This document shows, piece by piece, positions 24,575 through 48,456 of a DNA stretch of 64,000 nucleotides. Within the stretch, counting starts at the first letter, position 1, and each line of letters begins with the position of its first letter. The notes beneath the pieces were generated by a model that did no database searches, had not been told where the DNA came from, and worked only from the letters and a program-made list of their open reading frames with translations. The stretch is from Candidatus Micrarchaeota archaeon (lineage in GTDB: Archaea; Micrarchaeota; Micrarchaeia; Micrarchaeales; CABMGC01): the NCBI GenBank assembly GCA_021827925.1, contig JAKATZ010000014.1, forward strand, positions 3,551 to 67,550, given 5' to 3'. The position numbers were made by a program, and so were the translations under genes.

Positions 24575-25624
24575 ATGACTATGGCCAAAAAAGATAGCGC
24601 AAAGGACAAGTTCGCCGTGCACTATGGTGAACCCGTGGGCATGATAGCGGCGCAGTCGATAGGAGAACCCGGAACACAGATGATCCTAAGAACTTTCCAC
24701 TATGCAGGGATAGAAGCCACCATCGCAACGTCAGGGCTGCCCAGAATAGTCGAGCTGGTGGACGCGAAGAAGAAGCCTGCGACGCCAATAACTTACGTGT
24801 ACCTTAACAATGATATTAAAAGGAGCTTTGAGAAATCCGAGGCAGTGCTTAAGAAGATAAACGAGGTAAAGATGAGCGGCATAGTCAAGAGGATAATGGA
24901 GAACTTCTCGAAGGGTACGATAAAGATAGTATTCGACAGGCAGGCCCTTGAGGCTGCAGAGCTTACCCCAGGACAGGTGGCTGCAAAAATAGCAAAGGTC
25001 ATGGAGGCCGAGGCGAAGGTCGAGGAGGGCTCTGTGGTGATGAAGCTGAAGGCCAAGAAGCCGAAGGAAGTGAGGGCAGCAAGCGTAAAGATAATGAGAA
25101 AGGTAATACAGGGGATAGAGGGAGCAGGAAAGGCCATCATACAGCAGGACAAGGAAGGTGATTTCTACATCATAGCAGCTGGCAGCAATATCGAGGATAT
25201 AATAAAGGTTGACGGAGTAGACAAATCGCGGCTTTACACTAACGACGTTTTCGCGATGTACAGGCTCTTTGGCGTGGAGGCCGCAAGGAACACACTTGCC
25301 AACGAGCTTAAGAAGACGCTCAACGAGCAGAAGATAGCCGTCGATGACAGGCATCTGCTCCTTGTAGCTGACGCGATGACTTACAGCGGAGACATAAGAG
25401 GTGTCGGAAGGCATGGACTCAGCGGCCAGAAGAGTTCCGTATTTGCGAGGGCTGCTTATGAAGAGACGGTAAAGCACCTTGTCAACGCGGCAGTACTCGG
25501 TGAAATAGACAATATGCGCGGAGTCACGGAGAACATACTTGTAGGGAAACAAATACCGATAGGTACGGGTTCGGTGAAGCTTGGCATGAAGAAGGAGGAT
25601 ATGAGGAAGACCAGACCGAAATAA
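24575..25624 (+). CDS. rpoA2: RNA polymerase subunit A'' (Rpo1C)
   Basis: [26 protein letters not shown] and a C-terminal ENI(L)VG...P.GTG block. Confidence 0.95.
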
Positions 25625-25771
25625 GCGCAACAGGGAAACTTATTATGCCGGTTCAAGTATAAGAAGCGATGCTTACGTTAAGGGAGTTTGGCTTCCGCAT
25701 GGGAAAGTAATATAAATCAGTATCGACAGATTTTCCCCTAACTCATCAATGCAACTGTTTCTGGTAAGATC

Positions 25772-26719
25772 ATGGGAAATCTTTTCAAAGGTAGAGGTGT
25801 AAGCGCAAGCGCATCAGCGGAAGCGGCACTTCAGTCGCTTCTCAGAGGCAGGCCGATATCTGGCCAGTCGCTGCGGATGGCGAAGGAGATACTTCCTTCT
25901 TTCGTTGATAGGCTGGATACTGCAAAAGGAGAAGTCCTCCTTGTCGCAGGTAGCAACGGAGGAGGGCAGTTCTCGGAGATGCTGAGCGATACGGATGTGA
26001 TAGCCGTAGGCTCGGCAGATCGCAGGCTTGATATTGATACTCTTGAGAGGTTCAGCGGCGCGGTGAGGGAAGCGGCAAAAAGGCTTGCTCAGGAAGGAAT
26101 ACGCGTTGCTGCGTTCGCAACAGCGCAGAACGAGAGTTATGTTGAGGGCATTGTAAGGCAGAGAATACGCAGCCGTTGGGGTTTACGTAAGGAAAGCGTA
26201 CAGCTCCTGCACCTTCTTTTCTATCCGTCAGAGGAATCCGTGCTTGCATGGGAGCCAGAAAGACTGGCGAGGGCGCTGTTCACCAATAGCACTACGGTGA
26301 TCGGGGATGACAGCATCAGGGTAGGCATAATAGAGAGGGCTGCGTCAGGAAGGGCCATCGCAGGGGATCGTGTGCTCTTTGAAGCTGAGAAAGCAATAGC
26401 CTATTCTTTCATCACGTACAGGTCGAACACTCCGCATTTCCCCATAGAGGTATCTTTTAATGAAGGCTTCAGGAAGATAAAACTCGCACTGCTCGACGTT
26501 GGCAGGCTCATACTCGAAGAGAAGGGAGTTAGGGTAGATTCATGGGCAGATGTTATAGGTAATGCGAGCGCGCTGCCGGCAGGAATGGTTCCTGCTGTTG
26601 AAGAAGTAGGCAGGATAAAGCACATGAGAGGGCTGCTGCGTGATGAGGGTACCCTTACTAAACTGCACATAATGGGAAGCGAAGCCGTTCACTGTGCAGC
26701 AGAAGCAAGAAGAGCATGA
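25772..26719 (+). CDS. Pol-beta-superfamily nucleotidyltransferase-like protein, paralogue 1 of 3
   Basis: LLVAGSNGGGQFSEMLSDTDVIAV matches the G-S...D-x-D minimal NTase signature. The protein aligns by eye over its full length with the next two ORFs. Confidence 0.6.
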   Translation: MGNLFKGRGVSASASAEAALQSLLRGRPISGQSLRMAKEILPSFVDRLDTAKGEVLLVAGSNGGGQFSEMLSDTDVIAVGSADRRLDIDTLERFSGAVREAAKRLAQEGIRVAAFATAQNESYVEGIVRQRIRSRWGLRKESVQLLHLLFYPSEESVLAWEPERLARALFTNSTTVIGDDSIRVGIIERAASGRAIAGDRVLFEAEKAIAYSFITYRSNTPHFPIEVSFNEGFRKIKLALLDVGRLILEEKGVRVDSWADVIGNASALPAGMVPAVEEVGRIKHMRGLLRDEGTLTKLHIMGSEAVHCAAEARRA

Positions 26720-26907
26720 GCGCCCCCTTCCAGCTATTAACCTATCATAGGTCGTAGGTAATATAAAAGGTTTTCCATATCGCTTATGTAGACGGAATAC
26801 CGCTGCGAAAATTATATAAATCAAGAGCCGCGCTAATTAATTGCGCCCTTGACCGCTACCGAAATGGGGTTCCGTGCGGAATCATAAATGGAACCCGATG
26901 TTTGGAT

Positions 26908-27870
26908 ATGGTTAGCTTAGTGTGGGCGCCGTTGGTCCCCATGAACACCTTAAGAAAGGACGGAGCAGGAGCTTTGCAGGGAGGAAGGAAGGAGATTGAG
27001 AAAGCTCTCAGAGGAGCCGGAGTCACTGAAAGCGCAGTGCACATTCTTGGCCAGATAGTTGAAGCCCATAGTAGAAGAGGCCTTGATGAATCCCTGTTTC
27101 TCGCGGGAAGCACAAACGGGAGGAAGCATTACTCCGCAGTGGTAAGCGACATTGATATGGTAGCCATAGGGAATGGAACGAGAAGGCTTGATCTGGGGGT
27201 ACTTAACGCGATCTGTTCTGCGACAAGGGAAGCGATAGCAAAACTCGGGGAGGAAGGAGTATTCGTCGTTGGGTTCCCTACGTTCAGAGCCGAGACCCCA
27301 ATTGAAGACCTCGCAAGGTATACCATAGCGCACAGGCAAGGAAAGAATCCGGACAATATAGAGGTAAAGCTGCTGCACACTCTATTCTATTCCTCGATTG
27401 ATGCGCTTAGGGCGTTTGAACCCATAAGCCTGGCCGAGTCGCTGATCATGACCAGCATATCAATAATGGGAGAGGACAAGAAGGATGCACTGCTTTCTGC
27501 TTTGAGAGACGGCACGGTGCCGGTGAAGAGCTACATAATAGACGCCGAGACGACCCTGGCATATTCATACATGGGCATTATGTCAAATGTACATCTACCG
27601 GAAGAGACAGGAAGGAAAGAAGCCCTTAGGAAGGTGCAGTACGCACTGCTCCAGGCAGCGAAAGGCTTCCTCACCCAGAGGAACGTCCCCGTGTACTCTT
27701 TTGAGGGCGTAGTTACAAACGCAGGCCAGCTCCCGAGCATAAGCAGGGGGGTGGTGATGGATATAAACTCTGCAAAGAATAGCGCAGGGCTGCTTAGCAT
27801 GGAGAGTGCAGTTGCGCTGCACACGATGGGGGCGAGAGCCATCTGCGAGATTGAGAAGGAAGCCGTGTGA
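26908..27870 (+). CDS. Pol-beta-superfamily nucleotidyltransferase-like protein, paralogue 2 of 3
   Basis: LFLAGSTNGRKHYSAVVSDIDMVAI, plus the shared RRLD, LLHTLFYSS, ETTLAYSY and LHTMG blocks. The start is uncertain: TTG 26902, ATG 26908 or ATG 26941. Confidence 0.6.
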   Translation: MVSLVWAPLVPMNTLRKDGAGALQGGRKEIEKALRGAGVTESAVHILGQIVEAHSRRGLDESLFLAGSTNGRKHYSAVVSDIDMVAIGNGTRRLDLGVLNAICSATREAIAKLGEEGVFVVGFPTFRAETPIEDLARYTIAHRQGKNPDNIEVKLLHTLFYSSIDALRAFEPISLAESLIMTSISIMGEDKKDALLSALRDGTVPVKSYIIDAETTLAYSYMGIMSNVHLPEETGRKEALRKVQYALLQAAKGFLTQRNVPVYSFEGVVTNAGQLPSISRGVVMDINSAKNSAGLLSMESAVALHTMGARAICEIEKEAV

Positions 27871-28057
27871 TTGGGACAATGCCCAAACAGCTATTGGAGC
27901 GCATATGATATAAAAGGCTTGCGCAGAGGAGACGCTGGCGCTGCAATAGAACTGAAATGCTTATAAAGCTGAGCCGAGAATTGTATTATGGAATCTTCAC
28001 CAAGGTTATCCGTTTCTTCTGCGCCTTTGGCGCGTGCTGTTTGTGCTGGTGTTGTGC

Positions 28058-29056
28058 ATGACCGTTGTACGCAATAATACTTTAGCGGAGGCTAGAGGAA
28101 GATCTGCACAGGTGATTGAGGCTGTGTTCGGCTCTCTCAGGAGAGAATTCCCTAACGATAATCTGTTTGGAATGGCGACAGGAAGCAACGGCAGGGAGGA
28201 GGGTAAGAACTATGTCTCGCACCGCGTTAGCGATACAGACATAGTAGTTGTTTTGGCAAGGAATAGGGAAGGGCAGAATTATGGGGAACGGCTGGACATC
28301 GATACGCTCACACGCATGCTTAACGCGATCAGATCTGCTGCACTTGAGCTAGGACCCGCAGACAGGGCACCTTTGCTCCCTAGGGCCAGAAACTGGGTTG
28401 CAGGCTTGTTTGCCCCTGAACGTAGCATGTATGTTGCCCCTTTTGCAACGGCCCCTACAGAGACCCTTGTGAAAGAATTAACAAGGCTCTCTATAATTGA
28501 TGCTACCGGAAGGAGGCTTGGGAGCGGGAACATCTTTCCGCTTCACTGCCTTGTATATCCAAACCCTGCCGCCTTATGGGGTTGGGAAGACAGGTCCGTA
28601 GCCACACACCTGCTTAGCAGCGGCAGGGTTCTTTACGGCGGGGAGCTTAGGGAGCGTATAGAAGAAGGCATAGACTCGAAGAAAGCAATGGATGATGGAA
28701 CCAGGAGGATGATAAGGGCAGAGACAGGAATAGTATATTCATATACGTTGCTCATCGCAAATCCTTACCTTCGCACCGAATTGCTTGCGGAGGACGGCAT
28801 ATCGAAGATGAAGTACGCAGCGATAATAGCCGCGGAAGTCTTCTTTGGCGAAAAGCTTGATGTTAGGGATTTTGGAGTGATACTCAAAAACAGAGATGCT
28901 CTCCCACAGGAACTCAGGGATTTCGTCGAGAGAGTGAAGGAGCTCAGGGAAAGATCCACTCTTCCGGGAAGGGATGAGCTTGTGGACCTGCATTTTCATG
29001 GGGCCAGAGCTATAAACGAAATCAATGGAATGCTTGCGAGGGAGAGGCGCACATGA
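28058..29056 (+). CDS. Pol-beta-superfamily nucleotidyltransferase-like protein, paralogue 3 of 3
   Basis: MATGSNGREEGKNYVSHRVSDTDIVVV, plus the shared ERLDIDTL, PLHCLVYPN, ETGIVYSY and LHFHG blocks. It carries two insertions relative to paralogues 1 and 2. Start at ATG 28058; the track start is GTG 28034. Confidence 0.6.
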   Translation: MTVVRNNTLAEARGRSAQVIEAVFGSLRREFPNDNLFGMATGSNGREEGKNYVSHRVSDTDIVVVLARNREGQNYGERLDIDTLTRMLNAIRSAALELGPADRAPLLPRARNWVAGLFAPERSMYVAPFATAPTETLVKELTRLSIIDATGRRLGSGNIFPLHCLVYPNPAALWGWEDRSVATHLLSSGRVLYGGELRERIEEGIDSKKAMDDGTRRMIRAETGIVYSYTLLIANPYLRTELLAEDGISKMKYAAIIAAEVFFGEKLDVRDFGVILKNRDALPQELRDFVERVKELRERSTLPGRDELVDLHFHGARAINEINGMLARERRT

Positions 29057-29104
29057 GGTTTGGTGCTGTGCTGCAGTGCAATAAACACGATATTGGGTGT
29101 CATA

Positions 29105-30394
29105 ATGATACGCAGGGATGACGAAAATTCACTGCTTAAATTATGGAATGGGGGTGTGAAACCAGCATATGGAGGCAGATGCTTATCCGACATTCCTGCG
29201 AGTATTGCGCACATTCTCGGAGTGGCAGGAGAGGGAAAAGGGCTCGACAGTTCGCTTCTTGGGGGAATTGACTGCAGCGGTGTGGAGAATGTGGTGCTGC
29301 TTCTCATCGATGGCCTTGGATACGAGATGCTGCTTCCCTCGGTTGGAAGAGAAGGATTCTTCAAGAAATTTGCAGATGAAGGCAGCATATCGCCAATAAC
29401 TTCGGTATTTCCATCAACCACTGCGGCAGGCATTACCTCCGTGTCCACCGGCCTGACCACGCAGGAGCATGCCCTTCCGGAATGGAAAGTCTATTTCAGA
29501 GAGATAGATATGGTGATAGATACGCTGCCTTTTGCTTCTGTGGAGCATAAGAACCTCTATGAAATACTTGGGGATGGTGCTGATCCGAAGATGCTCTACA
29601 ATGGAAGTACTCTCAGCGAGCGCCTTTCCGATTCAGGTGTAGAGGCATTCAACGTGACCTGGAAAAATATACAGAAATCCGCATACAATAGCATCATAAA
29701 GAGAGGGAGTGCAGGCATTCCTTACACTAAGAACTCCGATGCTGCAATAATACTGAGGAGGATTATTGAGAGCAGGAGGGGAGGCCGTGCTTACATAGAT
29801 TTTTACACAGATTCGGTTGATTCGGTGACACACACGTACGGGCCGGGATCAGAGGAATCAGCTGCTGAGATCGCTGATCTCTCTGACATTTTGGACAGGG
29901 AACTGCTAGGGAAGATAAGCAGGGAGGATGCAATGAAAACCCTGCTAGTAATGACTGCTGACCATGGACATGCAAGAATACGACCGGAGAAAACAGTGTA
30001 CCTTAACGATTATCCCGAGATAATTGGCTCTTTCGAAATCGGTCTTTCAGGAAGGCCTATACCGCCGACAGGCAGCTGCAGGGACGTGTTCCTGCATATC
30101 AAAAGGGAATTTCTCGATAGAACAATCGAGATGCTCACTGAAGAGTTCGGAAGCTTTGCCAAAGTTGTACGGACGGAGGACGCGATAAAGGAGGGGCTTT
30201 TCGGATTGAATTCGCCTAAAAAGGAATTCTATGATAGGGTTGGAAACGTCATGCTCCTCCCGGATGCGGAGCGGCCTATATGGTACGAATTCGTACAAGG
30301 AAAGAAGATGGAAGACAAGGGCATGCACGGAGGTCTTAGCAGACAGGAGATGATGATACCGTTTGGGATGGCGAGGCTCTCAGATCTGCTATGA
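29105..30394 (+). CDS. Alkaline-phosphatase-superfamily type I phosphodiesterase/nucleotide pyrophosphatase-like protein
   Basis: VVLLLIDGLGYE (metal Asp), SVFPSTTAAGITSVSTG (Thr nucleophile region), FYTDSVDSVTHTYGP and LLVMTADHGH. Start at ATG 29105, or TTG 29060 only 4 nt after the preceding stop. Confidence 0.7.
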   Translation: MIRRDDENSLLKLWNGGVKPAYGGRCLSDIPASIAHILGVAGEGKGLDSSLLGGIDCSGVENVVLLLIDGLGYEMLLPSVGREGFFKKFADEGSISPITSVFPSTTAAGITSVSTGLTTQEHALPEWKVYFREIDMVIDTLPFASVEHKNLYEILGDGADPKMLYNGSTLSERLSDSGVEAFNVTWKNIQKSAYNSIIKRGSAGIPYTKNSDAAIILRRIIESRRGGRAYIDFYTDSVDSVTHTYGPGSEESAAEIADLSDILDRELLGKISREDAMKTLLVMTADHGHARIRPEKTVYLNDYPEIIGSFEIGLSGRPIPPTGSCRDVFLHIKREFLDRTIEMLTEEFGSFAKVVRTEDAIKEGLFGLNSPKKEFYDRVGNVMLLPDAERPIWYEFVQGKKMEDKGMHGGLSRQEMMIPFGMARLSDLL

Positions 30395-30405
30395 TCGGCG
30401 CACAC

Positions 30406-31899
30406 CTATGCCTTTTCTGGCATGACCTTTTTGAAAAGATATTCGCCTTTTCGCGGCCTTCCCCTGAATTCTCCGAATTTGCAGTACTCGATGCCCTCCC
30501 TATCTACACCAAGCTGCCTGCGCAGCCTTTCGGAAGTTTCTGGCATGAATGGATATATTAGTATTGATATTATCCGGAGTGATTCGAGGAGATTGTAGAG
30601 AATCCCTGAGAGCTCATCGCCTTTCTTCTTCCATGCCTCCTTATCATTCACGTACTTGTTCGCAGCCCTGATGAATGACCATATTTCCCCGAGGGCTTTG
30701 AATGTATCCAGTTTCTCCATGTACTTTTCTATTGAAGGAAGATGCAGCTGCTCCTCAAGCTCAGGCTTACCTTTTATCTTTACGCCAGATTTCTCCGCCA
30801 GAGTGAGTACGCGGTTTGCAAGATTGCCAAGGTCATCGACAAGCTCTCCGTTTATCCTTGCCACCAGAGCCTTTTCGGAAAAATCGCCGTCCTCACCGAA
30901 GGGTATCTCTCTTGCGAGGAAGTACCGCAGGGCATCAGTACCGTATTTGGATGTGATGTCCTTCGGATTTATTGCATTGCCAAAAGACTTACTCATCTTT
31001 CTGCCCTCTATGGTCCACCATCCATGCGCAAAGACGCGGCGTGGAACTGCTATGCCAGCAGATAGGAGCATCGCGGGCCATATTACAGAATGGAACCAGT
31101 TGATCTCCTTGCCGACCACATGAACGTCAGCAGGCCAGAGCTCTTCGAATCTACCCTTAGGCCATCCTATCGCGCTCAGGTAATTTATTAGCGCGTCAAC
31201 CCAGACGTACACCGTGTGCTTTTCATCTCCTGGGAATGGCAGCGCCCATTCCACGGTAGTACGCGTTATGCTTATGTCATTCAGGCCCGCTTCCACCCTG
31301 TTTATAATCTCCTGTGACCTGAATTGCGGAGAAAGGAACTCTGGATTCTCCTTATAGTGATTAAGCAGTTTCTCACGGTACTTGCTAAGCTTGAAGAAGT
31401 AGGACTCCTCATTTACGAGCTTCACTTCCCTTCCGCACTGCGGACACTTCCCTTCCTTGAGCTGGAGAGCCGTGAAGAAGGTCTCGTCAGGGGTGCAGTA
31501 CCATCCTTCGTAGGCTCCCTTGTAAATATCGCCGCTCTCCTTGAGCCTTTTTATGAATTCTGCTACAGTGTTTTCGTGCCTCTTCTCGGTTGTGCGTATG
31601 AAATCATCGTTGGATATCTCGAGGATTTTCCACATCTCTTCGAACTGCGAGACTATGCCGTCCACGAATTCCTTTGGACTCTTGCCTGCGCCAGATGCGG
31701 CCTTTGCAATCTTCTCCCCGTGCTCATCTGTGCCAGTAAGGAAGAATACTTTTTCCCCATTGAGCGCATGCCATCTTGCTATGATGTCCGACATGACCAT
31801 CGTGTACGCGTGGCCTATGTGGGGCTTGTCGTTTACATAGAATATAGGCGTAGTGATGTAGAATTCTGGCAAAGCATCATCAGATGGGAAGCAGTGCAC
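30406..31899 (-). CDS. metG: Methionyl-tRNA synthetase
   Basis: ITTPIFYVNDKPHIGHAY (HIGH), the zinc knuckle CPQCG and KMSKSFGN. The track start at 32097 would overlap mcm, so I place the start at in-frame GTG 31899. Confidence 0.85.
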   Translation of the reverse strand: MHCFPSDDALPEFYITTPIFYVNDKPHIGHAYTMVMSDIIARWHALNGEKVFFLTGTDEHGEKIAKAASGAGKSPKEFVDGIVSQFEEMWKILEISNDDFIRTTEKRHENTVAEFIKRLKESGDIYKGAYEGWYCTPDETFFTALQLKEGKCPQCGREVKLVNEESYFFKLSKYREKLLNHYKENPEFLSPQFRSQEIINRVEAGLNDISITRTTVEWALPFPGDEKHTVYVWVDALINYLSAIGWPKGRFEELWPADVHVVGKEINWFHSVIWPAMLLSAGIAVPRRVFAHGWWTIEGRKMSKSFGNAINPKDITSKYGTDALRYFLAREIPFGEDGDFSEKALVARINGELVDDLGNLANRVLTLAEKSGVKIKGKPELEEQLHLPSIEKYMEKLDTFKALGEIWSFIRAANKYVNDKEAWKKKGDELSGILYNLLESLRIISILIYPFMPETSERLRRQLGVDREGIEYCKFGEFRGRPRKGEYLFKKVMPEKA

Positions 31900-31956
31900 C
31901 CATAGATTCTTTTTTATGCCTTTAGAGCTAAATAATGTACTGCCGGAGGTGGAGAT

Positions 31957-34020
31957 ATGGAAGAGGCTGAGGCTGACCTTGAACTGATAGACAAATTCAC
32001 TGATTTCTTCAACGCCTATTATCTGGACCATCTGAACAGCATGTTCATAGGCTACCCCAAGATCAGGAGCGTGTACGTGGACTTGAGGGACCTGCAACGG
32101 TTTGACGCTGACCTTGCTTCCGAGTTGATGGAGAACCCTGACGGTGTGCTTAAGAGTGCGAATCTGGCGCTCTCAAAGCTCAATCCTAACCCAAATGCCA
32201 CCGAGCCTGTGTACACCCGGTTTCACAGCTCTTACGCGAGCTCGCCGCTCATACAGGACGTTGGATCGGAAAACATCGGCAAGCTTCTTACGCTAGATTC
32301 GCTTGTGGTCAAGAGGTCGGAGATAACGCCCAGAGTGAGCATAGGCGTATTCAAGTGCTCATTCTGTGGCACCACGATAAAGGTGAGAGTGGAGAGGGAG
32401 AGCGCTACAGACATTTGCCCGCAGTGCAAGAGAAGATCGCTCAAGCAGGACAATGCGGAGTCGAGGTTCAGCAATCTGCAGCGAATAGCAGTGCAGGACC
32501 CCCTTGAGAAACTCAAGGGAAACATACCAACCTGGCAGCTTGAGGTCTGGCTTGAAGACGACATGGTTAATACAGTGATACCAGGAGACAGGATAGAGAT
32601 AACCGGCATACTGAGGATAAAGCCGCGTAAGTCTTCCAAGGGCAAGGAAGACAAGTTCCTCTTCACGATGTTCCTTGATGCTGTCTCGCTTATGGCAAAG
32701 CAGCGTGAGTTTACCGAGATAGAGATAAGCAGGGAGGACGAAAAGACCATAAAGGAGCTCGGCAGCGATCCCAAGATATTCGAGAAGATCGCGAAGTCCA
32801 TAGCGCCGTCGATATATGGATACGATGAGATAAAGAAGGCGCTTGCGCTGCAGCTTTTTGGAGGAACGCCTGAAAAGAAACTTGTCGACGGCGGAAGAAT
32901 AAGGAGCGATATACACATGCTACTGATAGGAGACCCTGGCAGCGCTAAGACAAGGTTGTTGCAAGCGGTTACGGAGATCGTGCCGAAGGGCATATACGTG
33001 AGTGGGAAGTCTACCAGCGGCGCAGGGCTTACGGCCGCTGCGGAGAGGGATGAATTCTCAGAGGGAGGATGGACTCTGAAAGCCGGGGCTCTTGTACTAG
33101 GCTCTGGAGGGCAAGTGAGCATAGACGAGTTTGACAAGATAGGGGAGGAGGACAGATCATCCATGCTTGAGGCACTTGAATCGCAGACCATAAGCGTAGC
33201 CAAGGCAGGAATAGTTGCGAAGTTCAATGCCAGAACATCTGTTCTTGCGGCGGCGAACCCCAGGTACGGAAGGTTTGACCCGAATGTCTATCCCGCAGAG
33301 CAGTTCGACATACCTCCCGCGTTGCTATCAAGGTTCGATCTTATATTCCCTATAAAGGATGTACTCGATGATGAGAAGGACAAGATGATAGCGCAGCACA
33401 TACTAACACAGCACAAAGCAGCAGGAGCACAGATAGCTGAGATCACTGACTATGAACAGGTAGAGAGCCCGCCGATTAGCTCCGATATTCTTCGCAAGTA
33501 TGTCGCATACGCGAAGAAGAACATCAAGCCAAGGCTCACGGAGGAGGCAAGCGCCAAGTTCTCTGAATATTATGTTGACCTGAGAAGGCTAGGGGTTAAG
33601 CAGGGCGCTACCCCAATAACTCCGCGGCAGATAGAGGGCCTGGTTAGACTTGCAGAGGGAAGCGCCAAGGCGAGGCTCTCTCAAGTGATAGAAACAGGAG
33701 ACTCCGAGCTTGCCATAGCGCTTTTTGAGTACATGCTGAACACCCTGGCTGTTGACAGGGGCGGTCGCAAGGACATAGACGCGCTACTCACAGGAATGCC
33801 GCGCGAGAAAGTCAATAAAATAAATGCGATACTGGGGCTGATAAAAGATCTTGAAGAGAGGGAAAACGGGGCGAAAGTTGTAAGGATACTTGAGGAAGCG
33901 GAGAAGCAGGGAATTGACAGGGCCACCACTACCAAGTACGTGAACGAGCTCGAGAGGAGCGGCGATGTATTCAGTCCCAGGCCTGGAGTGCTGCACGTTG
34001 TTAAACGGGACGAGGAGTAA
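31957..34020 (+). CDS. mcm: MCM replicative helicase
   Basis: Zinc finger CSFCG...CPQC, Walker A LLIGDPGSAKT, Walker B SIDEFDK, arginine finger SRFDLIF, and a C-terminal wHTH region. Confidence 0.95.
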   Translation: MEEAEADLELIDKFTDFFNAYYLDHLNSMFIGYPKIRSVYVDLRDLQRFDADLASELMENPDGVLKSANLALSKLNPNPNATEPVYTRFHSSYASSPLIQDVGSENIGKLLTLDSLVVKRSEITPRVSIGVFKCSFCGTTIKVRVERESATDICPQCKRRSLKQDNAESRFSNLQRIAVQDPLEKLKGNIPTWQLEVWLEDDMVNTVIPGDRIEITGILRIKPRKSSKGKEDKFLFTMFLDAVSLMAKQREFTEIEISREDEKTIKELGSDPKIFEKIAKSIAPSIYGYDEIKKALALQLFGGTPEKKLVDGGRIRSDIHMLLIGDPGSAKTRLLQAVTEIVPKGIYVSGKSTSGAGLTAAAERDEFSEGGWTLKAGALVLGSGGQVSIDEFDKIGEEDRSSMLEALESQTISVAKAGIVAKFNARTSVLAAANPRYGRFDPNVYPAEQFDIPPALLSRFDLIFPIKDVLDDEKDKMIAQHILTQHKAAGAQIAEITDYEQVESPPISSDILRKYVAYAKKNIKPRLTEEASAKFSEYYVDLRRLGVKQGATPITPRQIEGLVRLAEGSAKARLSQVIETGDSELAIALFEYMLNTLAVDRGGRKDIDALLTGMPREKVNKINAILGLIKDLEERENGAKVVRILEEAEKQGIDRATTTKYVNELERSGDVFSPRPGVLHVVKRDEE

Positions 34021-43764: not shown

Positions 43765-44387
43765 TAAGCATGGGAGAGGAGACACTTATGCCTTCGTTCT
43801 CATTCGTAGGCAGGATGGCTAGCGGTAAGAGCACATATGCAGATGAGATGGCCAGGAAGATGAGCTCCGAGCTAGGGATACGGATTTACAGGGCTTCATT
43901 ATCGGCGAAGATATCTGAGGTTGCAAAAGAGCTCTTTGGTATGGAGGGAAAGGACAGAAGGCTTCTACAGAAGATAGGCACCAAGATGCGCGAAATAGAT
44001 CCCGAGGTGTGGGCTAGGCTGCTAGTGCAGAATGCAATTGCCTTTAAGACCATGCCGATGATTATCGACGGAATCAGAACGCATGGAGAAGAGGCTGTCA
44101 TCAGGGAAGGAATACCCGGAATGTTCATAGTAAGGCTTGAGACAAGGGAACATGAGAGGCTTGCTGCATTCGAAGCCGAGCATGGGAGGCGTCCTACAGA
44201 GGAAGAGCTTAATGATATTACTGAAGAAGGCATAGCAAGCATAAGGGAAGATATTACCATGTCAAATCCTTATCGCAGGGACCTGATGGAGAAGCAGATA
44301 GGCATGCTCGTTGATATGGTCAGAGAAGGCAGGCTGAGCGGATCCGGAAGCACGGATAGGACATTTCAGGCCTGGTCTGTGCCGTGA
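43761..44387 (+). CDS. P-loop nucleotide/nucleoside kinase-like protein
   Basis: Walker A GRMASGKST and a DG(I/V)R block, ~200 aa. The start overlaps the cutA stop (ATGA); ATG 43770 or 43788 are also possible. Confidence 0.45.
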   Translation: MISMGEETLMPSFSFVGRMASGKSTYADEMARKMSSELGIRIYRASLSAKISEVAKELFGMEGKDRRLLQKIGTKMREIDPEVWARLLVQNAIAFKTMPMIIDGIRTHGEEAVIREGIPGMFIVRLETREHERLAAFEAEHGRRPTEEELNDITEEGIASIREDITMSNPYRRDLMEKQIGMLVDMVREGRLSGSGSTDRTFQAWSVP

Positions 44388-45712
44388 TCCCTGCGCCCTA
44401 TGCCGAAATAATCGAGAACTGCAGGCGCCACATCAAGGACACAGGGATTTGATGGCATAACTGCAGAGCTGGAAGGATGTATGCCTATTATGCCATGGCG
44501 CGTATGATCTCCGCTCTTGGAATCCTCCGGCTTCAGGAAATTGCTATCAGAGAAACTGAATATGTCTATGACGTATCCTTCTTTCGCCTGGACGAATATG
44601 TCAGGTGCTATGAATTTCGTAGTGCCCAGGTAGTAATCTTTGGCATCAATTACCTCACAGAACACCTTGTCGCCTTCCGCACTTCTTGCGGCGCGCAGGA
44701 GGTCCATAAGCTCGGCTTTCACACTGGGGCGCTCTTCTTCAGGGACTGCGCCTGATTCGAATCTTTTATCATTTATCCAGATGGAACATACTGCGCCGTA
44801 TGAAAGTGCCGCGAATGCCTTTGTCCTGGCCATATCAAAATCGAGATGGTGCAGCCTTGAGCCGTTTGCGTTTCCTTTTTGCCGTTCTGGAAGCGAGATG
44901 TAGGAGTGCTTTTCAAGATAGGAGTTTATAAGGAACTTGTTGGCTATCGGTTGTGCCCCATGATCCGATACAAGTAGCAGCGAACCTCCCTCTTTATCAG
45001 AGATGCCGATAAGGTAATTTATGAAGTCGGATATTTCGCGATATACGGAATAGACAAGTGTGCGGCGGTGCGGATCGCTAAGTGCGAAGTGCTGTATCCT
45101 ATCCGTTTCGGTGAAACATACGAAAACGAAGTCATAGCTGCCTGATTCGAGGAGCTCGCGCGAGATGGCTGCGCGCCTTCTTGCACTATCGGCGAGTATG
45201 CCAGCTGCTTGCGCGATGCTTATATCTCTGCTCTTTATCATCTTCTCAACATCGGGCTCGCCGCTGAAATCATGCTTCTCAACTACAGAGGATATTGATG
45301 GGCTTGACTTAGGCTTCAATGGAAATCCCGTGATCATGTCTATATTGCCGTTGTCAGAAAGTTTTGTGTCAGTGGCAGGAGTTATGACCAGGCAGCGGAG
45401 CCCTGATTCGGCAAGAAGCTCCCAGAAGGGCGGATTCTGGCGCGGGTCGTAGAAAATTAGCTGCTGCGAATAGTCCCCCTTTATCTCAAAGAAGTCAGGC
45501 ACACCGTGCTCTCCCGGAGGCAGTCCAGTGTATATGCTGGGCCATGCTGCTCCTGTCATAGGGGGAAGGGTGGATTCCATCTCGGATATACTCCCGTTTT
45601 TCAAGAAGCGCGAAAAGCCGGCAGCTATGCCGTTCTCGGTCAACTCGTTGATAAGCCACAGTGGAGCAGAATCTATACCCACCATGTAAAGTTTTTTGCC
45701 CTTCTTTTCCAT
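44366..45712 (-). CDS. Second alkaline-phosphatase-superfamily phosphodiesterase/nucleotide pyrophosphatase-like protein
   Basis: LYMVGIDSAP, TLPPMTGAAWPSIYTG, CFTETDRIQH and LLLVSDHGA. I place the start at ATG 45712, with a TATA-like element ~35 nt upstream, rather than the track start 45964. Confidence 0.65.
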   Translation of the reverse strand: MEKKGKKLYMVGIDSAPLWLINELTENGIAAGFSRFLKNGSISEMESTLPPMTGAAWPSIYTGLPPGEHGVPDFFEIKGDYSQQLIFYDPRQNPPFWELLAESGLRCLVITPATDTKLSDNGNIDMITGFPLKPKSSPSISSVVEKHDFSGEPDVEKMIKSRDISIAQAAGILADSARRRAAISRELLESGSYDFVFVCFTETDRIQHFALSDPHRRTLVYSVYREISDFINYLIGISDKEGGSLLLVSDHGAQPIANKFLINSYLEKHSYISLPERQKGNANGSRLHHLDFDMARTKAFAALSYGAVCSIWINDKRFESGAVPEEERPSVKAELMDLLRAARSAEGDKVFCEVIDAKDYYLGTTKFIAPDIFVQAKEGYVIDIFSFSDSNFLKPEDSKSGDHTRHGIIGIHPSSSAVMPSNPCVLDVAPAVLDYFGIGRRDHGTDQA

Positions 45713-45743
45713 GCATAGCGCCGTGCCTTTATTTGGCCGATAA

Positions 45744-45756
45744 GGATATATAATCC
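45744..45756 (-). promoter_or_regulatory. TATA-box-like element upstream of the 44366-45712 gene
   Basis: GGATTATATATCC on the minus strand, 32-44 nt upstream of ATG 45712. Confidence 0.3.
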
Positions 45757-45763
45757 CAATGCT

Positions 45764-45937
45764 ATGAGGACTAATGGGAGTTACATGTGCAAGCACTGCA
45801 ATGTAAACTGCGATTGCGACTGCTCCGGGCAGAGGTCCAAATTCTTCGTCAATTCTGGTTGCAGCATATACCTTTACGATTACACCTGCCCTAAGTGCAG
45901 CCACACTTTTGACATCAGCCTCGACGATGCAAAATAG
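45764..45937 (+). CDS. Possible small (57 aa) zinc-ribbon protein below the ORF-track cutoff
   Basis: Translated by hand: MRTNGSYMCKHCNVNCDCDCSGQRSKFFVNSGCSIYLYDYTCPKCSHTFDISLDDAK. It has CxxC...CPxC pairs plus CxCxC. No convincing promoter spacing is visible. Confidence 0.3.
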   Translation: MRTNGSYMCKHCNVNCDCDCSGQRSKFFVNSGCSIYLYDYTCPKCSHTFDISLDDAK

Positions 45938-47384
45938 TCCGTTTCCCTCTCCCTCTTCCGGCATACAGGGAGAACGTCCTTTCTATAATTTCTGAGGATT
46001 TTCCGAGATACGTCCGGGGGTCGGAAAGTTCTGATATCTCTGAATGAGAGAGAAATCCGGATATATCAACATTCTTAAGAAGAAGATCTGCGTACGCGGT
46101 TCTAGACTTCAAGGCTTCGAGCGCAAGCTGCTGGGAGAGGAGTCTTGCCGCTGACCTGTGCATCCCCTTTGATATCAGCCTGCTCATTATGCGTTGTGCA
46201 GTAACGGCCCCATAGGTGGAACCCAGATTAGAGCGTATGCGATCCTTTTCAGGCTTCACGCGCCTTATAACATTCTCAAGAAGCCTGGCAGAATAGTCTG
46301 CAAGGACAAATGCCTCGGATATGGAGATTCTGTCAGAAAGCGATGCCGTAAGATCCCTGAAGTCTTCGCTGAGCATCGATTCCAGAGAGGTTGATGCGAA
46401 CCCGCGCAATGTCCGAGATATAGAGATACACCTCTCCTCAATGAAAGGGTTTCCGTGCACGTTCTTGTGAGGCATGGCTGAGCTGCTTACGGATTTGCGG
46501 TCCACTGGCTCGATTAGCTCGAGTATCTCGGTACGCCTTAGCGTCTTGATGTATTCGGCTATGCTGGCTATCCTGCCACCGAGTACGGCTATGTCTGTCA
46601 GAATGTAAGATATGTTCTCGCGCGGCGGGGTCTGCATCGATACCGCAGAGGGCCTTATACCCAGCTTGCCGAGGGCGCGACGCTCTATTTCGAAGCCATC
46701 CATGCCCTCGTCTGAAGAGACATCGTAGCTGCCAACGGCTCCTGAAAGCTTTCCTTCGGTGCAGTTCTCAAGGTCATAACGCAGCCTCTCTACGGATTTG
46801 TTTAAGCAGAAACCGAAGAATGCAAACGGCATACCGAAAGAGACAGGTATTGCGTGCTGCCCATGGGTTCTTGCTATAGCTGCAATGGCTTTCCATTCAA
46901 CTGATACTGCGAGACATGAATCGCGTAGGCTTTCAGTTGTCTCGAGCAGGATCGCAAGCCCTTTTCGCATCTGAACTGCTTTGGCGGTCTCTATGACGTC
47001 TGCTGAAGTCAGGGAGTAGTGTACGTAGGCTCCGCTCTTGCCGGCTTGCTTTGAAAGCTCTTTTATTATGGCTGCTGTTTCGTGGTGGGTCTCGCGGGCC
47101 TCTATCCTGTGGACTTCGTCAGGCTTCACGCGCCTTACGCTTGCGGCCTTGCGTATGCTTCTGGCCGCAGATGGAGGCACCTTGCCAGGATAAAGCTCGG
47201 ATATTGCTGTTGAAGCGGCAGATTCAGCATCCAGTATTGATTGGAGATAACCTGACTCTCCAAATATACGAGTCATGCGCGTGCCATACCTGACCCCTGT
47301 TGGAGAAACGTTCTCTGAATGAACTGAACCATAGGAGACATCCAGCTTGGGTCCGGTTTTACTACTGCGCTCGGTGCGGGGCAT
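45915..47384 (-). CDS. purB: Adenylosuccinate lyase
   Basis: Fumarate-lyase-family layout with RY..R.M..IF, TSADV and SSSAMPHK...NP signature (with a small insertion). Its start is 2 nt from the purA stop. Confidence 0.8.
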   Translation of the reverse strand: MPRTERSSKTGPKLDVSYGSVHSENVSPTGVRYGTRMTRIFGESGYLQSILDAESAASTAISELYPGKVPPSAARSIRKAASVRRVKPDEVHRIEARETHHETAAIIKELSKQAGKSGAYVHYSLTSADVIETAKAVQMRKGLAILLETTESLRDSCLAVSVEWKAIAAIARTHGQHAIPVSFGMPFAFFGFCLNKSVERLRYDLENCTEGKLSGAVGSYDVSSDEGMDGFEIERRALGKLGIRPSAVSMQTPPRENISYILTDIAVLGGRIASIAEYIKTLRRTEILELIEPVDRKSVSSSAMPHKNVHGNPFIEERCISISRTLRGFASTSLESMLSEDFRDLTASLSDRISISEAFVLADYSARLLENVIRRVKPEKDRIRSNLGSTYGAVTAQRIMSRLISKGMHRSAARLLSQQLALEALKSRTAYADLLLKNVDISGFLSHSEISELSDPRTYLGKSSEIIERTFSLYAGRGRGKRTILHRRG

Positions 47385-47386
47385 GC

Positions 47387-48403
47387 TTATCGCCCCGATA
47401 TCTTCTCATCGCGCAGATCTATGATGTCGTAGACGTCCTCCCCGGTACCTATCAGTGTAACAGGTATTCCGACCTCTTTTTCAATCTTTTCGATCCAACG
47501 TTTGGCCTCAGAAGGCAGTTTTTCGTACCTTTTTATGCCGTTCACGTTCTTGAATCGTATATCAAGCTTTGTTATCGCTATCTGCGTAGCCGAGTTTATG
47601 GAAGCCACGTCCTTGGCCAACTCTGCATCGAAATCGGCAACACGGCGTCGCCTTCCCGTGACAGTCCCATACTCTACCATGCCCATCTTGTCGGCATCCG
47701 TAGGCGATAGTTCGCCTTCAAGCGGACCCGCACCTACCCGCGTTATGAATGATTTGAATACCAGTATTACATTTCCGACATATTTAGGGCCTACACCGAC
47801 CTCGCTCAATACTCCCGAAGAGGTGGCATTTCGGCTTGTTACGTAAGGATAAGCGCCGTGATACAGGCTGAGAAGATGGCCTTGCGTTCCTTCAACAAGC
47901 ACACCCTTCCCCTTTGCAAGAGCCTTTGTGAGTTCAAGAGGTACGTCCTTTATGAATCCGCTTATCTCAGGATAATCTTTTGCAAGCTTGAGTCTGCGCA
48001 GAATTCGCTTTGACTCGGCACTGCCGACTCCCTGCACGGTGCTGCCGACTTCACCGCTTAGAAACTTGTTGCTCTTCTCCTCGTTTACCTCTTCTTCTGT
48101 TATGACGGCTGCATGGCCGTCTATGATGACTCTGTTCTTTGATCCTGTTTCATCCATCTCCTTGAAAAGGACGTCAAGCTTGATCAGAGCGCCAGGGGGT
48201 ATTGCCAGTTTTGATTTCCTGTTTACGAATGCCGAAGGGATGGTCCTGAGCGGATACTTTTTCTCCTCGAAAACCACGGTATGGCCCGCGTTGATCCCGC
48301 CGGTTCGGAGCGAGAATGCAGGAGCGTCATTCAGCGCAAGATACGATGCCACTTTTCCCTTCCCCTCGTCACCGTAGAATCCGCCTACGACAAGATCTAT
48401 CAC
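47387..48403 (-). CDS. purA: Adenylosuccinate synthetase (short archaeal form)
   Basis: [13 protein letters not shown] and [10 protein letters not shown] place the start at GTG 48403 because a TATA-like element lies inside the track N-terminal extension. Confidence 0.85.
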
Positions 48404-48433
48404 GCAGACACCAAGGATGAATCGATGGCCTCG

Positions 48434-48443
48434 TTTATATAAT
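48434..48443 (-). promoter_or_regulatory. TATA-box-like element for purA-purB
   Basis: AAATTATATAAACG on the minus strand, ~30-40 nt upstream of GTG 48403. Confidence 0.3.
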
Positions 48444-48456
48444 TTACGCACAGGCC

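Follow-up and report, generated by a model that had tools for sequence, protein, structure and literature searches.

We analysed a 64-kb stretch of DNA from a Candidatus Micrarchaeota archaeon (contig JAKATZ010000014.1, positions 3,551 to 67,550; 'the window' denotes this whole stretch, and coordinates are window positions unless a locus is named) in which three tandem genes, P1, P2 and P3, and a gene for a phosphodiesterase (PDE) lie behind rpoA'', the gene for subunit A'' of RNA polymerase. In our reading, to which we assign a probability of roughly 60%, P1–P3 belong to a fast-evolving family of two-domain nucleotidyltransferases (NTases) that occurs in Micrarchaeota only, the array goes back to old duplications, and the PDE is the older resident of the slot. 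This reading draws on the observed paralogy, rarity, taxonomic range, motif conservation, predicted fold and synteny history of these genes.

Three diverged paralogues with an intact nucleotidyltransferase signature

Pairwise BLASTP aligned the three proteins over nearly their full lengths, P1 with P2 at 32% identity (E 1e-43), P1 with P3 at 29% (E 4e-23) and P2 with P3 at 28% (E 3e-23). The end-to-end alignment at low identity that a preliminary description of this DNA had made by eye was thus confirmed at 28–32%, and P1, P2 and P3 are true paralogues whose similarity is far above chance. Residues G60, S61, D73, D75 and E121 (P1 numbering) are identical in all three, and both the GS and the DxD motifs, 12, 13 and 16 residues apart in the three paralogues, are kept, leaving the Pol-beta NTase signature intact in every copy as had been claimed. 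The other motif blocks listed at that time are also present throughout, with two corrections: P3 has TGS and not AGS, and the block written as 'E(A/T)..' reads AE..(I/L)(A/V)YS(F/Y) in its true form, an offset of one residue. Because P1, P2 and P3 keep every family-invariant residue, no copy looks degenerate, in line with the earlier view of old, non-decayed duplicates. P1 is predicted to open with two helices as an N-terminal extension, which lead into an NTase core of the Pol-beta type and, over residues ~180–314, a helical C-terminal domain; in P3 the helix behind the DxD strand is followed by an insert of 21 residues.

The array and its borders are arranged as follows.

24575–25624, + strand: rpoA'', RNA polymerase subunit A'' (PF04998, RNA_pol_Rpb1_5, on the identical gene in locus L001)
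25625–25771, + strand: spacer 1, 147 nt
25772–26719, + strand: NTase paralogue P1, 315 aa
26720–26907, + strand: spacer 2, 188 nt
26908–27870, + strand: NTase paralogue P2, 320 aa (322 aa if the start is TTG 26902)
27871–28057, + strand: spacer 3, 187 nt
28058–29056, + strand: NTase paralogue P3, 332 aa (alternative starts 28034 and 28112)
29105–30394, + strand: PDE of the alkaline phosphatase (AlkP) superfamily, nucleotide pyrophosphatase/phosphodiesterase (NPP) type, 429 aa (444 aa if the start is TTG 29060)
30406–31899, − strand: metG, methionyl-tRNA synthetase (Pfam tRNA-synt_1g on the identical gene)

All four open reading frames (ORFs) of the cluster were recovered on the + strand with the coordinates and sizes first given for them, and the RNA_pol_Rpb1_5 match establishes the gene at 24575–25624 as rpoA'', so that the cluster does lie directly behind it. 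Gene callers agree on these starts in four public contigs that match the window exactly or almost exactly, among them contig DAHXRA010000015.1 of GCA_027363555.1. The stop codon of P3 (29054–29056) ends 3 nt ahead of TTG 29060 and 48 nt ahead of ATG 29105, which bears out the close spacing of P3 and PDE for either start; alignments with homologues begin at the first residue of the 429-aa form. As the final gene of the rpoH-B''-B'-A'-A'' operon, rpoA'' forms the upstream border of a variable slot; it is 67–79% identical to the rpoA'' genes of related Micrarchaeota contigs. The downstream border is metG, found in the same place in loci L011 and L007 and ~6 kb further off in L025 and L026. The P1–P3 array has a G+C content of 0.50–0.51, equal to that of its surroundings and flat across the region; an insertion by a mobile element was rejected, there being no flanking repeats, integrase or G+C anomaly in the region. 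The neighbour genes of the array are rpoA'', PDE, metG and MCM. At the metG border, the longest ORF (30406–32097, − strand, 563 aa from a TTG) runs 141 nt into the beginning of the divergently oriented MCM gene (31957–34020, + strand); gene callers give a 497-aa metG that does not overlap MCM and leaves a divergent intergenic region of 57 nt.

A very small family apparently confined to Micrarchaeota

When 5.8 billion proteins were searched by word index, nothing but the window's own proteins came back. An exhaustive HMMER search with a profile of P1–P3 against 1.84 billion cluster representatives gave 51 proteins at E<=1e-3, nine of them at E<=1e-30, and three of these nine were the window's own or near-identical proteins. 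Since the exhaustive search found so few representatives, the family is very small. Every named member is a hypothetical protein of Candidatus Micrarchaeota or Micrarchaeia, and, as far as these labels go, the family appears confined to Micrarchaeota, a group of DPANN archaea.

Among the 12 closest family members, G60, S61, S72, D73, D75, G178, E206 and N219 are invariant, and L86, D87, E121, L146, L223 and K237 nearly so; across all 51 members, D73 and D75 alone are at least 90% conserved. The string GS...[ST]DxD was found in 27 of the 32 members inspected. G60-S61 form an hG[GS] loop right after a predicted strand (55–59), and S72-D73-x-D75 stand at the start of another (74–79), in the position of the metal-binding pair. 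For a third carboxylate the candidates, read from the alignment, are the near-invariant E121 and position 147 (H/Q/E/D) on strand 143–151.

Profile searches place these proteins near known NTases without assigning them to a family. Ten of the 51 relatives match NTP_transf_2 (PF01909) and three match Polbeta, with a best E of 6e-6; the NTP_transf_2 matches that were inspected individually all fell below the gathering score. When the family profile was compared with the Protein Data Bank (PDB), the top match was kanamycin NTase (E 0.003), and the other top matches were mostly NTases too: minimal NTases, CdnE, DrrA and AadA. KNTase_C, DUF4111 and the NCBIfam resistance models gave no match in P1–P3 or in any of the 51 relatives, LicD gave none in any of the 51 members, and a GlnD NCBIfam model matched one of 51 (E 0.0045). 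PADLOC likewise found nothing in P1–P3. Hence the profile check proposed for the paralogues reached no characterised family and yielded weak NTP_transf_2 matches in relatives, and the statement that no described system is recognisable stood up against Pfam, NCBIfam and PADLOC. Literature searches (Micrarchaeota with nucleotidyltransferase; COG1524) produced no description of either the NTase or the PDE family.

The predicted fold resembles two-domain nucleotidyltransferases

An AlphaFold2 model of P1 built from the 51-sequence alignment reached a predicted local distance difference test score (pLDDT) of 90.6 and a predicted template-modelling score (pTM) of 0.90; a shallower model from a three-sequence alignment reached a pLDDT of 72.8. 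In the deeper model two N-terminal helices are followed by strand 55–59, the G60-S61 loop and strand 74–79, which begins at D73/D75; alpha/beta elements then continue to residue ~177 and give way to an all-helical domain (180–314). The helical C-terminus foreseen in the preliminary description is therefore predicted, at ~135 aa, while its suggested kinship with KNTase_C or HEPN domains found no match to KNTase_C and no conserved Rx4-6H motif.

A Foldseek search of the PDB with this model, the check that had been suggested, returned NTases in most of the top places, at moderate support. The best match was ANT(3'')(9), an aminoglycoside nucleotidyltransferase (ANT), at E 2.9e-3 and a probability of 0.95–0.97, and further top matches included the adenylyltransferase (AT) domain of GlnE, in third place, AadA, ANT(4') and MntA, the last aligning to the NTase core with a TMt of 0.48 and a probability of 0.97. 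Twelve of the 13 PDB matches with a probability of at least 0.5 were NTases. Alignments to ANTs cover ~300 columns and reproduce the two-domain build of those enzymes, and the weaker early model had recovered the same fold families together with LinB and Hailong HalB. P1–P3 are thus very probably Pol-beta-superfamily NTases with an ANT-like two-domain architecture, and the model points to a distinct family that has no close structural relative in the PDB. A viral origin was rejected, no structural match in BFVD falling below E 0.15.

The array mixes old subfamilies and evolves fast

A neighbour-joining tree of 32 family members, whose deeper nodes are unsupported, joined P3 with the single NTase of L007 (bootstrap 100), a gene that lies in the same slot downstream of rpoA'', and made P1 and P2 sisters (bootstrap 88). 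The array therefore combines old subfamilies, at least two in number; P3 is the orthologue of the L007 NTase and appears to represent the older lineage. Bootstrap values of 100 also united L005_a with L008_c, and the third L011 copy with L094 and P0016; the first two L011 copies are a recent pair (56% identical). P2 is slightly nearer to L008_b (37% identity) than to P1 (32%), and the P1/P2 duplication is itself old, yet the spacers of the two genes still share a 20-nt element, described below. Copy number differs between loci, with one gene in L007, two in L092, three in L011 and at least three in L008–L010.

P3 and its L007 orthologue are 35% identical, whereas the flanking rpoA'' genes are 79% identical, and the family therefore evolves much faster than its housekeeping neighbours. 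At the level of strains, comparison of the window with L103 found 41 differences in 8.4 kb, so that all the following counts are small: 6 synonymous and 1 nonsynonymous in P1, 5 and 0 in P3, 8 and 4 in PDE, and 3 and 7 in P2 (L103 1393–2355), where the ratio of nonsynonymous to synonymous rates (dN/dS) is ~0.7. These small counts suggest that P1, P3 and PDE are under constraint between strains. Synonymous divergence (dS) was higher in the NTase and PDE genes (0.013–0.028) than in metG and MCM (0.005–0.009).

A further member, P0018 (360 aa), was seen in two genomes (regions L101 3435–4298 and L102 5114–6731) at 1–1.3 kb from transposases, a DDE transposase in one genome and an IS200 Y1 transposase with TnpB (Cas12f1-like) in the other; in both it overlaps a convergent methyltransferase gene.

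Variable copy number, fast evolution, a turnover-prone slot and nearby transposases together fit an accessory role better than a housekeeping one, possibly a role in conflict or detoxification.

The phosphodiesterase is an older resident of the slot

The fourth gene is, as proposed, a PDE of the AlkP superfamily. It matches Pfam Phosphodiest (PF01663) at E 1e-24 (88.3 bits against a cut-off of 23; profile positions 1–341 of 342) and contains LLLIDGLGYE, FPSTTAAG, DSVTHTYGP and TADHGH. Residues D69, T105/T106, D239, H243, D286, H287 and H408 are invariant in 27 homologues; we take them to be the bimetal ligands and the threonine nucleophile of AlkP/NPP enzymes. Because these positions are invariant, the PDE is probably enzymatically active. 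The best PDB sequence match is Xanthomonas NPP (PDB 2gsn, E 0.0085), with which the D..H and DH motifs align.

The search for homologues gave 337 proteins at E<=1e-10, of which the best 120 listed are 38–51% identical over nearly the full length; 'alkaline phosphatase family protein' is the sole annotation of those that bear a name. In a scan of genomes, relatives turned up in at least 572 species, the majority of which lack an NTase of this kind. Hosts include Micrarchaeota (closest, 43–47%), Aenigmatarchaeota, Bathyarchaeia, Nitrososphaerales, Patescibacteria of the candidate phyla radiation (CPR) and Chloroflexota. By its sequence the PDE belongs to a distinct clade of ~430-aa cytoplasmic proteins that is widespread in archaea and CPR bacteria, and neither the homologues nor the literature search offered a characterised member. 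A second PDE family encountered next to NTases (type B) is 25% identical to that of the window (type A) and forms a separate, smaller archaeal family labelled Marsarchaeota, Micrarchaeaceae and Methanothrix; a metagenome scan with its alignment gave no match. An identity of the PDE with PglZ of bacteriophage exclusion (BREX) systems was rejected, the match spanning 17 residues (E 4e-3 to 5e-4) and the window holding no BREX genes. The window also contains a second Phosphodiest gene (44366–45964, − strand, 532 aa, Pfam E 1.5e-28), which adjoins purB (45915–47384) and purA (47387–48451) and is only distantly related to the PDE at 29105–30394 and to type B.

The history of the slot separates the PDE from the NTases. 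In six related Micrarchaeota contigs (L014, L020, L025, L026, L108 and L126) the orthologous PDE directly follows rpoA'' on the same strand with no NTase between them, and L025 and L026 have two tandem PDEs there. We conclude from these six relatives that the rpoA''-PDE junction is the older state and that the NTases entered it. Conversely, the closest NTase-bearing relatives in the same slot both lack a PDE there: L011 reads rpoA''-NTase-NTase-NTase-metG, with the PDE of its genome on another contig (L023), and L007 reads rpoA''-PfkB-NTase-(two NTP_transferases)-glucose-6-phosphate isomerase-metG. The space between the RNA polymerase operon and metG is thus a hot-spot of gene turnover in Micrarchaeota. 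Two earlier claims find no support in these observations. The PDE had been counted as part of an inserted module, with which the six rpoA''-PDE junctions and the occurrence of its family in at least 572 species, mostly without NTase, do not agree; and the cluster had been thought to occupy the place of the L30e-nusA-S12-S7 genes, whose absence after rpoA'' is a trait of the clade and was not caused by the cluster.

Association of nucleotidyltransferases with phosphodiesterases

Conservation of the linkage was surveyed from both sides. On the NTase side, 12 exact-protein look-ups gave 11 distinct contexts, and an AlkP-type PDE of one or the other of the two families was adjacent or one gene away in five of them:

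Window: NTases co-directional with a type-A PDE
L100: NTase convergent with a type-A PDE, 3-nt gap
L005: NTase convergent with a type-B PDE
L008/L009/L010: at least three tandem NTases convergent on a type-B PDE
L017: PDE one gene away, with an HD-domain gene between, co-directional with the NTase

The remaining six were L007, L011, L092 (two convergent paralogues), L094, L097 and L101/L102; in L094 a HAD hydrolase lies immediately upstream of the family member. On the PDE side, a hidden Markov model (HMM) of the NTase family was run against the six-frame ORFs of 160 PDE loci, 80 from genomes and 80 from metagenomes. It found one strong NTase neighbour (L017) and two weak ones (L043 and L057), and no neighbour family was conserved across the whole PDE family in the loci surveyed. 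If a genome of ~1000 genes has 3–4 PDE genes, we estimate chance adjacency at below 1% per context, and by this estimate the association is non-random; the base rate is not negligible, however, because the window itself holds the second, unrelated Phosphodiest gene. Taken together, the link is suggestively above chance and facultative, and a true functional coupling of NTase and PDE seems doubtful. Of the NTase-NTase-NTase-PDE linkage that was to be surveyed, the proximity in five of 11 contexts speaks for it, and the at most three of 160 PDE loci and the ancestral position of the PDE against it.

Several arrangements around these genes deserve record. In L017 (4539–7031, − strand) the NTase, an HD-domain phosphohydrolase (14-nt gap) and a sugar-1-phosphate NTP_transferase are co-directional and converge on the PDE. 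In the unclassified archaeon L043 (4435–5700, − strand) a PDE orthologue is convergent with an adjoining 422-aa canonical NTP_transf_2/Polbeta protein outside the NTase family, and in the Saccharibacteria-labelled L057 (2127–2969, + strand) a 281-aa protein directly after the PDE matches the NTase-family HMM at E 5e-4 and has no Pfam match. For NTase-family protein P0022 and PDE homologue P0062 the longest contig on record measures 11,810 bp in each case and their sources overlap, so the two may share one contig, which, if so, would add another case of proximity.

The PDE also occurs in a three-gene block of Micrarchaeota together with a ~700-aa Fic-domain/HEAT-repeat protein and a ~300-aa HAD hydrolase (L020 6968–11503; L012, L015, L016, L019, L021, L100, L104 and L126). 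The Fic match is above the Pfam gathering score, with the motif HPKENGNGRLAR in L021; in most cases rpoA'-rpoA'' closely precede the block, whose gene order is PDE-Fic-HAD or Fic-HAD-PDE, and the 64-kb window holds no homologue of its Fic or HAD genes. Genes for a GNAT acetyltransferase and an M28 peptidase recur as a pair in the vicinity of this block (L100 2012–4808, L126 11617–12577, L020 14673–15236). In L100 these two are co-directional and immediately upstream of the NTase-family protein P0013, which suggests a GNAT-M28-NTase transcription unit.

Spacers and putative promoters

The TATA-like strings described for the spacers sit where they had been placed, and more are present at about 25660 and at 27960–27968. 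Spacer 1 contains TGGGAAAGTAATATAAATCA at 25700–25719, resembling a transcription factor B recognition element (BRE) with a TATA box, as the putative P1 promoter; spacer 2 has TATA-like elements at 26757–26770 and 26804–26823, putatively serving P2, and spacer 3 at 27906–27917 and 27960–27968, putatively serving P3. The elements at 25700–25719 and 26804–26823 are 85% identical over 20 nt, a score reached by one of 500 dinucleotide shuffles, and the similarity of spacer 3 to spacer 2 is marginal (24 of 500). A common ancestry of all three spacers was consequently rejected, the P1 and P2 spacers alone being significantly similar in the shuffle test; a three-way alignment of the spacers overstates their conservation. 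No Rfam model of a structured RNA reached the gathering score in the spacers. The 48-nt gap between P3 and PDE has no TATA-like element, and PDE is probably co-transcribed with P3.

Proposed activity and alternative explanations

If P1–P3 act as their fold predicts, the NTase core would bind NTP-Mg2+ through the G-S loop and the D73-x-D75 pair, with E121 or residue 147 probably assisting catalysis, and a nucleoside monophosphate (NMP), probably AMP, would be moved from the NTP to a hydroxyl of an acceptor held by the helical domain, by analogy with ANTs, LinB, GlnE and MntA. Candidate residues for the role of catalytic base, or for contacts to phosphate or acceptor, are E121, E206, N219 and K237. 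The triplet would stem from old duplications in which the P3 lineage is the older and P1 and P2 are sisters; the slot holds one, three or no family members in related genomes, and the PDE would predate the NTases. The presence of several old subfamilies in the arrays of two distant genomes, the window and L008, suggests different acceptors or hetero-oligomers.

Several points weigh against this reading. P1–P3 match no Pfam or NCBIfam model even at E<=1. Foldseek against the PDB gave nothing at E<1e-3, and because all its E-values exceed that value support for the fold is moderate; global TM-scores to the structural neighbours are low (0.2–0.3), the core match to MntA reaches a TM of 0.48 at most, and the fold assignment is built on convergent weak signals. 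For the third catalytic carboxylate there are two candidates, E121 and 147, and no conserved neighbour gene indicates an acceptor. With 7 nonsynonymous against 3 synonymous differences, P2 may be undergoing relaxed or diversifying evolution, though the counts are small. Finally, each copy appears to retain its own promoter, which would allow independent transcription, and these promoters are sequence motifs.

Among alternative functions, detoxification of small molecules is conceivable, if somewhat unlikely. P1–P3 would then be ANT-like O-nucleotidyltransferases that inactivate antibiotics or toxic metabolites, their expansion would broaden the substrate range, and the adjacency of the PDE would be incidental. 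The nearest neighbours in structure and profile searches, ANT(3'')(9), AadA, ANT(4') and LinB, are indeed antibiotic-modifying enzymes of the same two-domain build, and lineage-specific turnover of copy number, fast evolution, the variable slot, the elevated nonsynonymous rate of P2 and the member near transposases all agree with such a role. However, the proteins belong by sequence to no ANT family (KNTase_C, DUF4111 or the NCBIfam resistance models), they score low against ANTs in TM comparison, their neighbourhood contains neither efflux genes nor other genes for resistance, and the non-random company of phosphoester hydrolases is left unexplained.

That company is the strength of the writer/eraser unit put forward in the preliminary description, which we judge unlikely. 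It holds that the NTases nucleotidylate a protein, an RNA end or a metabolite and that the AlkP-type PDE hydrolyses the resulting phosphodiester, making the modification reversible, with the three paralogues as different target specificities or as hetero-oligomers. A PDE is directly adjacent in the window, L005, L008/L009 and L100 and one gene off in L017, two PDE families only 25% identical are involved, and adjacency in any one context has the low chance estimate given above. Other phosphoester hydrolases accompany the family (the HD-domain protein of L017 and the HAD hydrolase of L094), the same PDE is linked in other Micrarchaeota to a HAD hydrolase and a protein with a Fic domain (an AMPylase fold), and the unrelated archaeon L043 has its PDE beside a canonical NTP_transf_2 protein. 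Against this, the PDE is ancestral at its position, directly behind rpoA'' in six relatives without NTases; only one strong and two weak NTase neighbours occur among 160 PDE loci; and six contexts, with L011 and L007 among them, have no PDE at the locus. Because four of the five NTase-PDE contexts are convergent, those adjacencies are not operons, and since a single phylum supplies every context, the count is inflated by inherited synteny. The proximity of the two enzymes in five of 11 contexts is suggestive, the linkage being facultative and the PDE not having arrived with the NTases.

A broader version of this idea, which we consider quite unlikely, is a reversible nucleotidylation system of Micrarchaeota in which the NTases, and elsewhere the Fic/HEAT AMPylase, would write an NMP mark that the cytoplasmic AlkP-type PDE would erase. 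In that scheme, and with as little likelihood, the PDE would ancestrally have been co-transcribed with the RNA polymerase operon, and the system could consequently couple transcription, or the dependence of these reduced symbionts on a host, to nucleotide status.

A conflict system is more improbable still. The NTases would here make a signal or neutralise a toxin in the manner of CD-NTases, MNT-HEPN pairs (MNT, minimal nucleotidyltransferase) or Hailong HalB, and the PDE would degrade or tune the signal. Weak profile similarity to CdnE and CdnD (E 0.03–0.5) and to MntA, HalB among the Foldseek matches, the variable, island-like location, fast evolution and the weak PglZ similarity of the PDE are compatible with it. 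Yet PADLOC does not match the NTases, the window and related loci contain no effector, Cap, HEPN or BREX partner, no CD-NTase structure occurs in the top 50 Foldseek matches, the Rx4-6H motif is not conserved, and BFVD offers no viral relatives. Membership in the CD-NTases and in cyclic-oligonucleotide-based anti-phage signalling (CBASS) was rejected (no PADLOC match, PDB profile matches at the level of motifs, no effector or Cap genes), as was membership in the MNT-HEPN systems (~320-aa proteins, no adjacent HEPN gene, no conserved Rx4-6H).

Least probable of all, and very unlikely, is envelope or glycan chemistry by LicD/fukutin-like phosphotransferases or by NTases acting on sugar or alcohol phosphates alongside sugar-1-phosphate nucleotidyltransferases: PF00483 NTP_transferase genes flank the member in L007 (two, along with genes for a PfkB kinase and a glucose-6-phosphate isomerase) and in L017, but LicD matches none of 51 members, no NTP_transferase genes lie near the window array, and the recurrence is limited to two related contigs and may be inherited synteny. 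A CCA-adding enzyme was rejected, since ordinary class-1 CCA enzymes are reported from Micrarchaeota (preprint 10.64898/2026.05.29.728689) and none was among the fold matches.

The preferred reading, a Micrarchaeota-only family of fast-evolving two-domain NTases beside an older PDE, directs attention to proteins that have neither a Pfam nor an NCBIfam model and are publicly annotated only as 'hypothetical'. They are restricted to poorly understood, ultra-small symbiotic archaea, in which several diverged copies are kept despite reduced genomes, and conserved residues and a confident structural model are now on hand for mutagenesis. The widespread uncharacterised PDE clade of archaea and CPR bacteria and its partnership with Fic and HAD proteins are targets for biochemistry in their own right. 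Synteny history weakens the notion of a module; should the hydrolase neighbourhood nevertheless be functional, it would point to a nucleotidylation cycle peculiar to this lineage and located next to the transcription machinery.

Comparison with known systems

The PDE of the window is like the NPP-type phosphodiesterases (PF01663), among them Xanthomonas NPP, in its PF01663 match and in its metal and nucleophile positions; it differs in that the similarity is distant and that it falls into its own ~430-aa cytoplasmic clade with faint PglZ similarity.

For the NTases, three known systems offer comparisons. With GlnE/GlnD they would share the pairing of Pol-beta NMP transfer with a hydrolysis that removes the group, by an HD domain in the case of GlnD; the GlnE AT domain ranks third in Foldseek, and one family member has an adjoining HD-domain gene. 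Here, however, the hydrolase is a separate AlkP-type protein with facultative linkage, in place of an HD or second NTase domain, and the NTases do not belong to GlnE/GlnD by sequence. The MNT/MntA group (PF01909) has the same hG[GS]...[ST]DxD pattern, is matched weakly by 10 of the 51 relatives and is the closest structural match at the domain level, whereas MNTs are proteins of ~100–130 aa that occur with a HEPN toxin and P1–P3 are ~320 aa long, with a fused helical domain and no HEPN partner.

The nearest neighbours in Foldseek and in the PDB profile search are the aminoglycoside and lincosamide NTases ANT(3'')(9)/AadA, ANT(4')/KNTase and LinB, which likewise join an N-terminal Pol-beta core (G-S, D-x-D/E) to a C-terminal helical domain within 250–330 aa. 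AadA has its catalytic base, E87, ~38 residues after its DxD, and in P1 the near-invariant E121 lies 46 residues after D75. P1–P3 differ from these enzymes in lacking membership by sequence, in their global TM-scores of 0.2–0.3, in two additional helices (~50 residues) at the N-terminus and a C-terminal domain of greater size, and in forming a tandem diverged array in a DPANN archaeon. The kind of enzyme, that of the ANT, MNT and GlnE type, is thus a known one, within which P1–P3 represent a new family.

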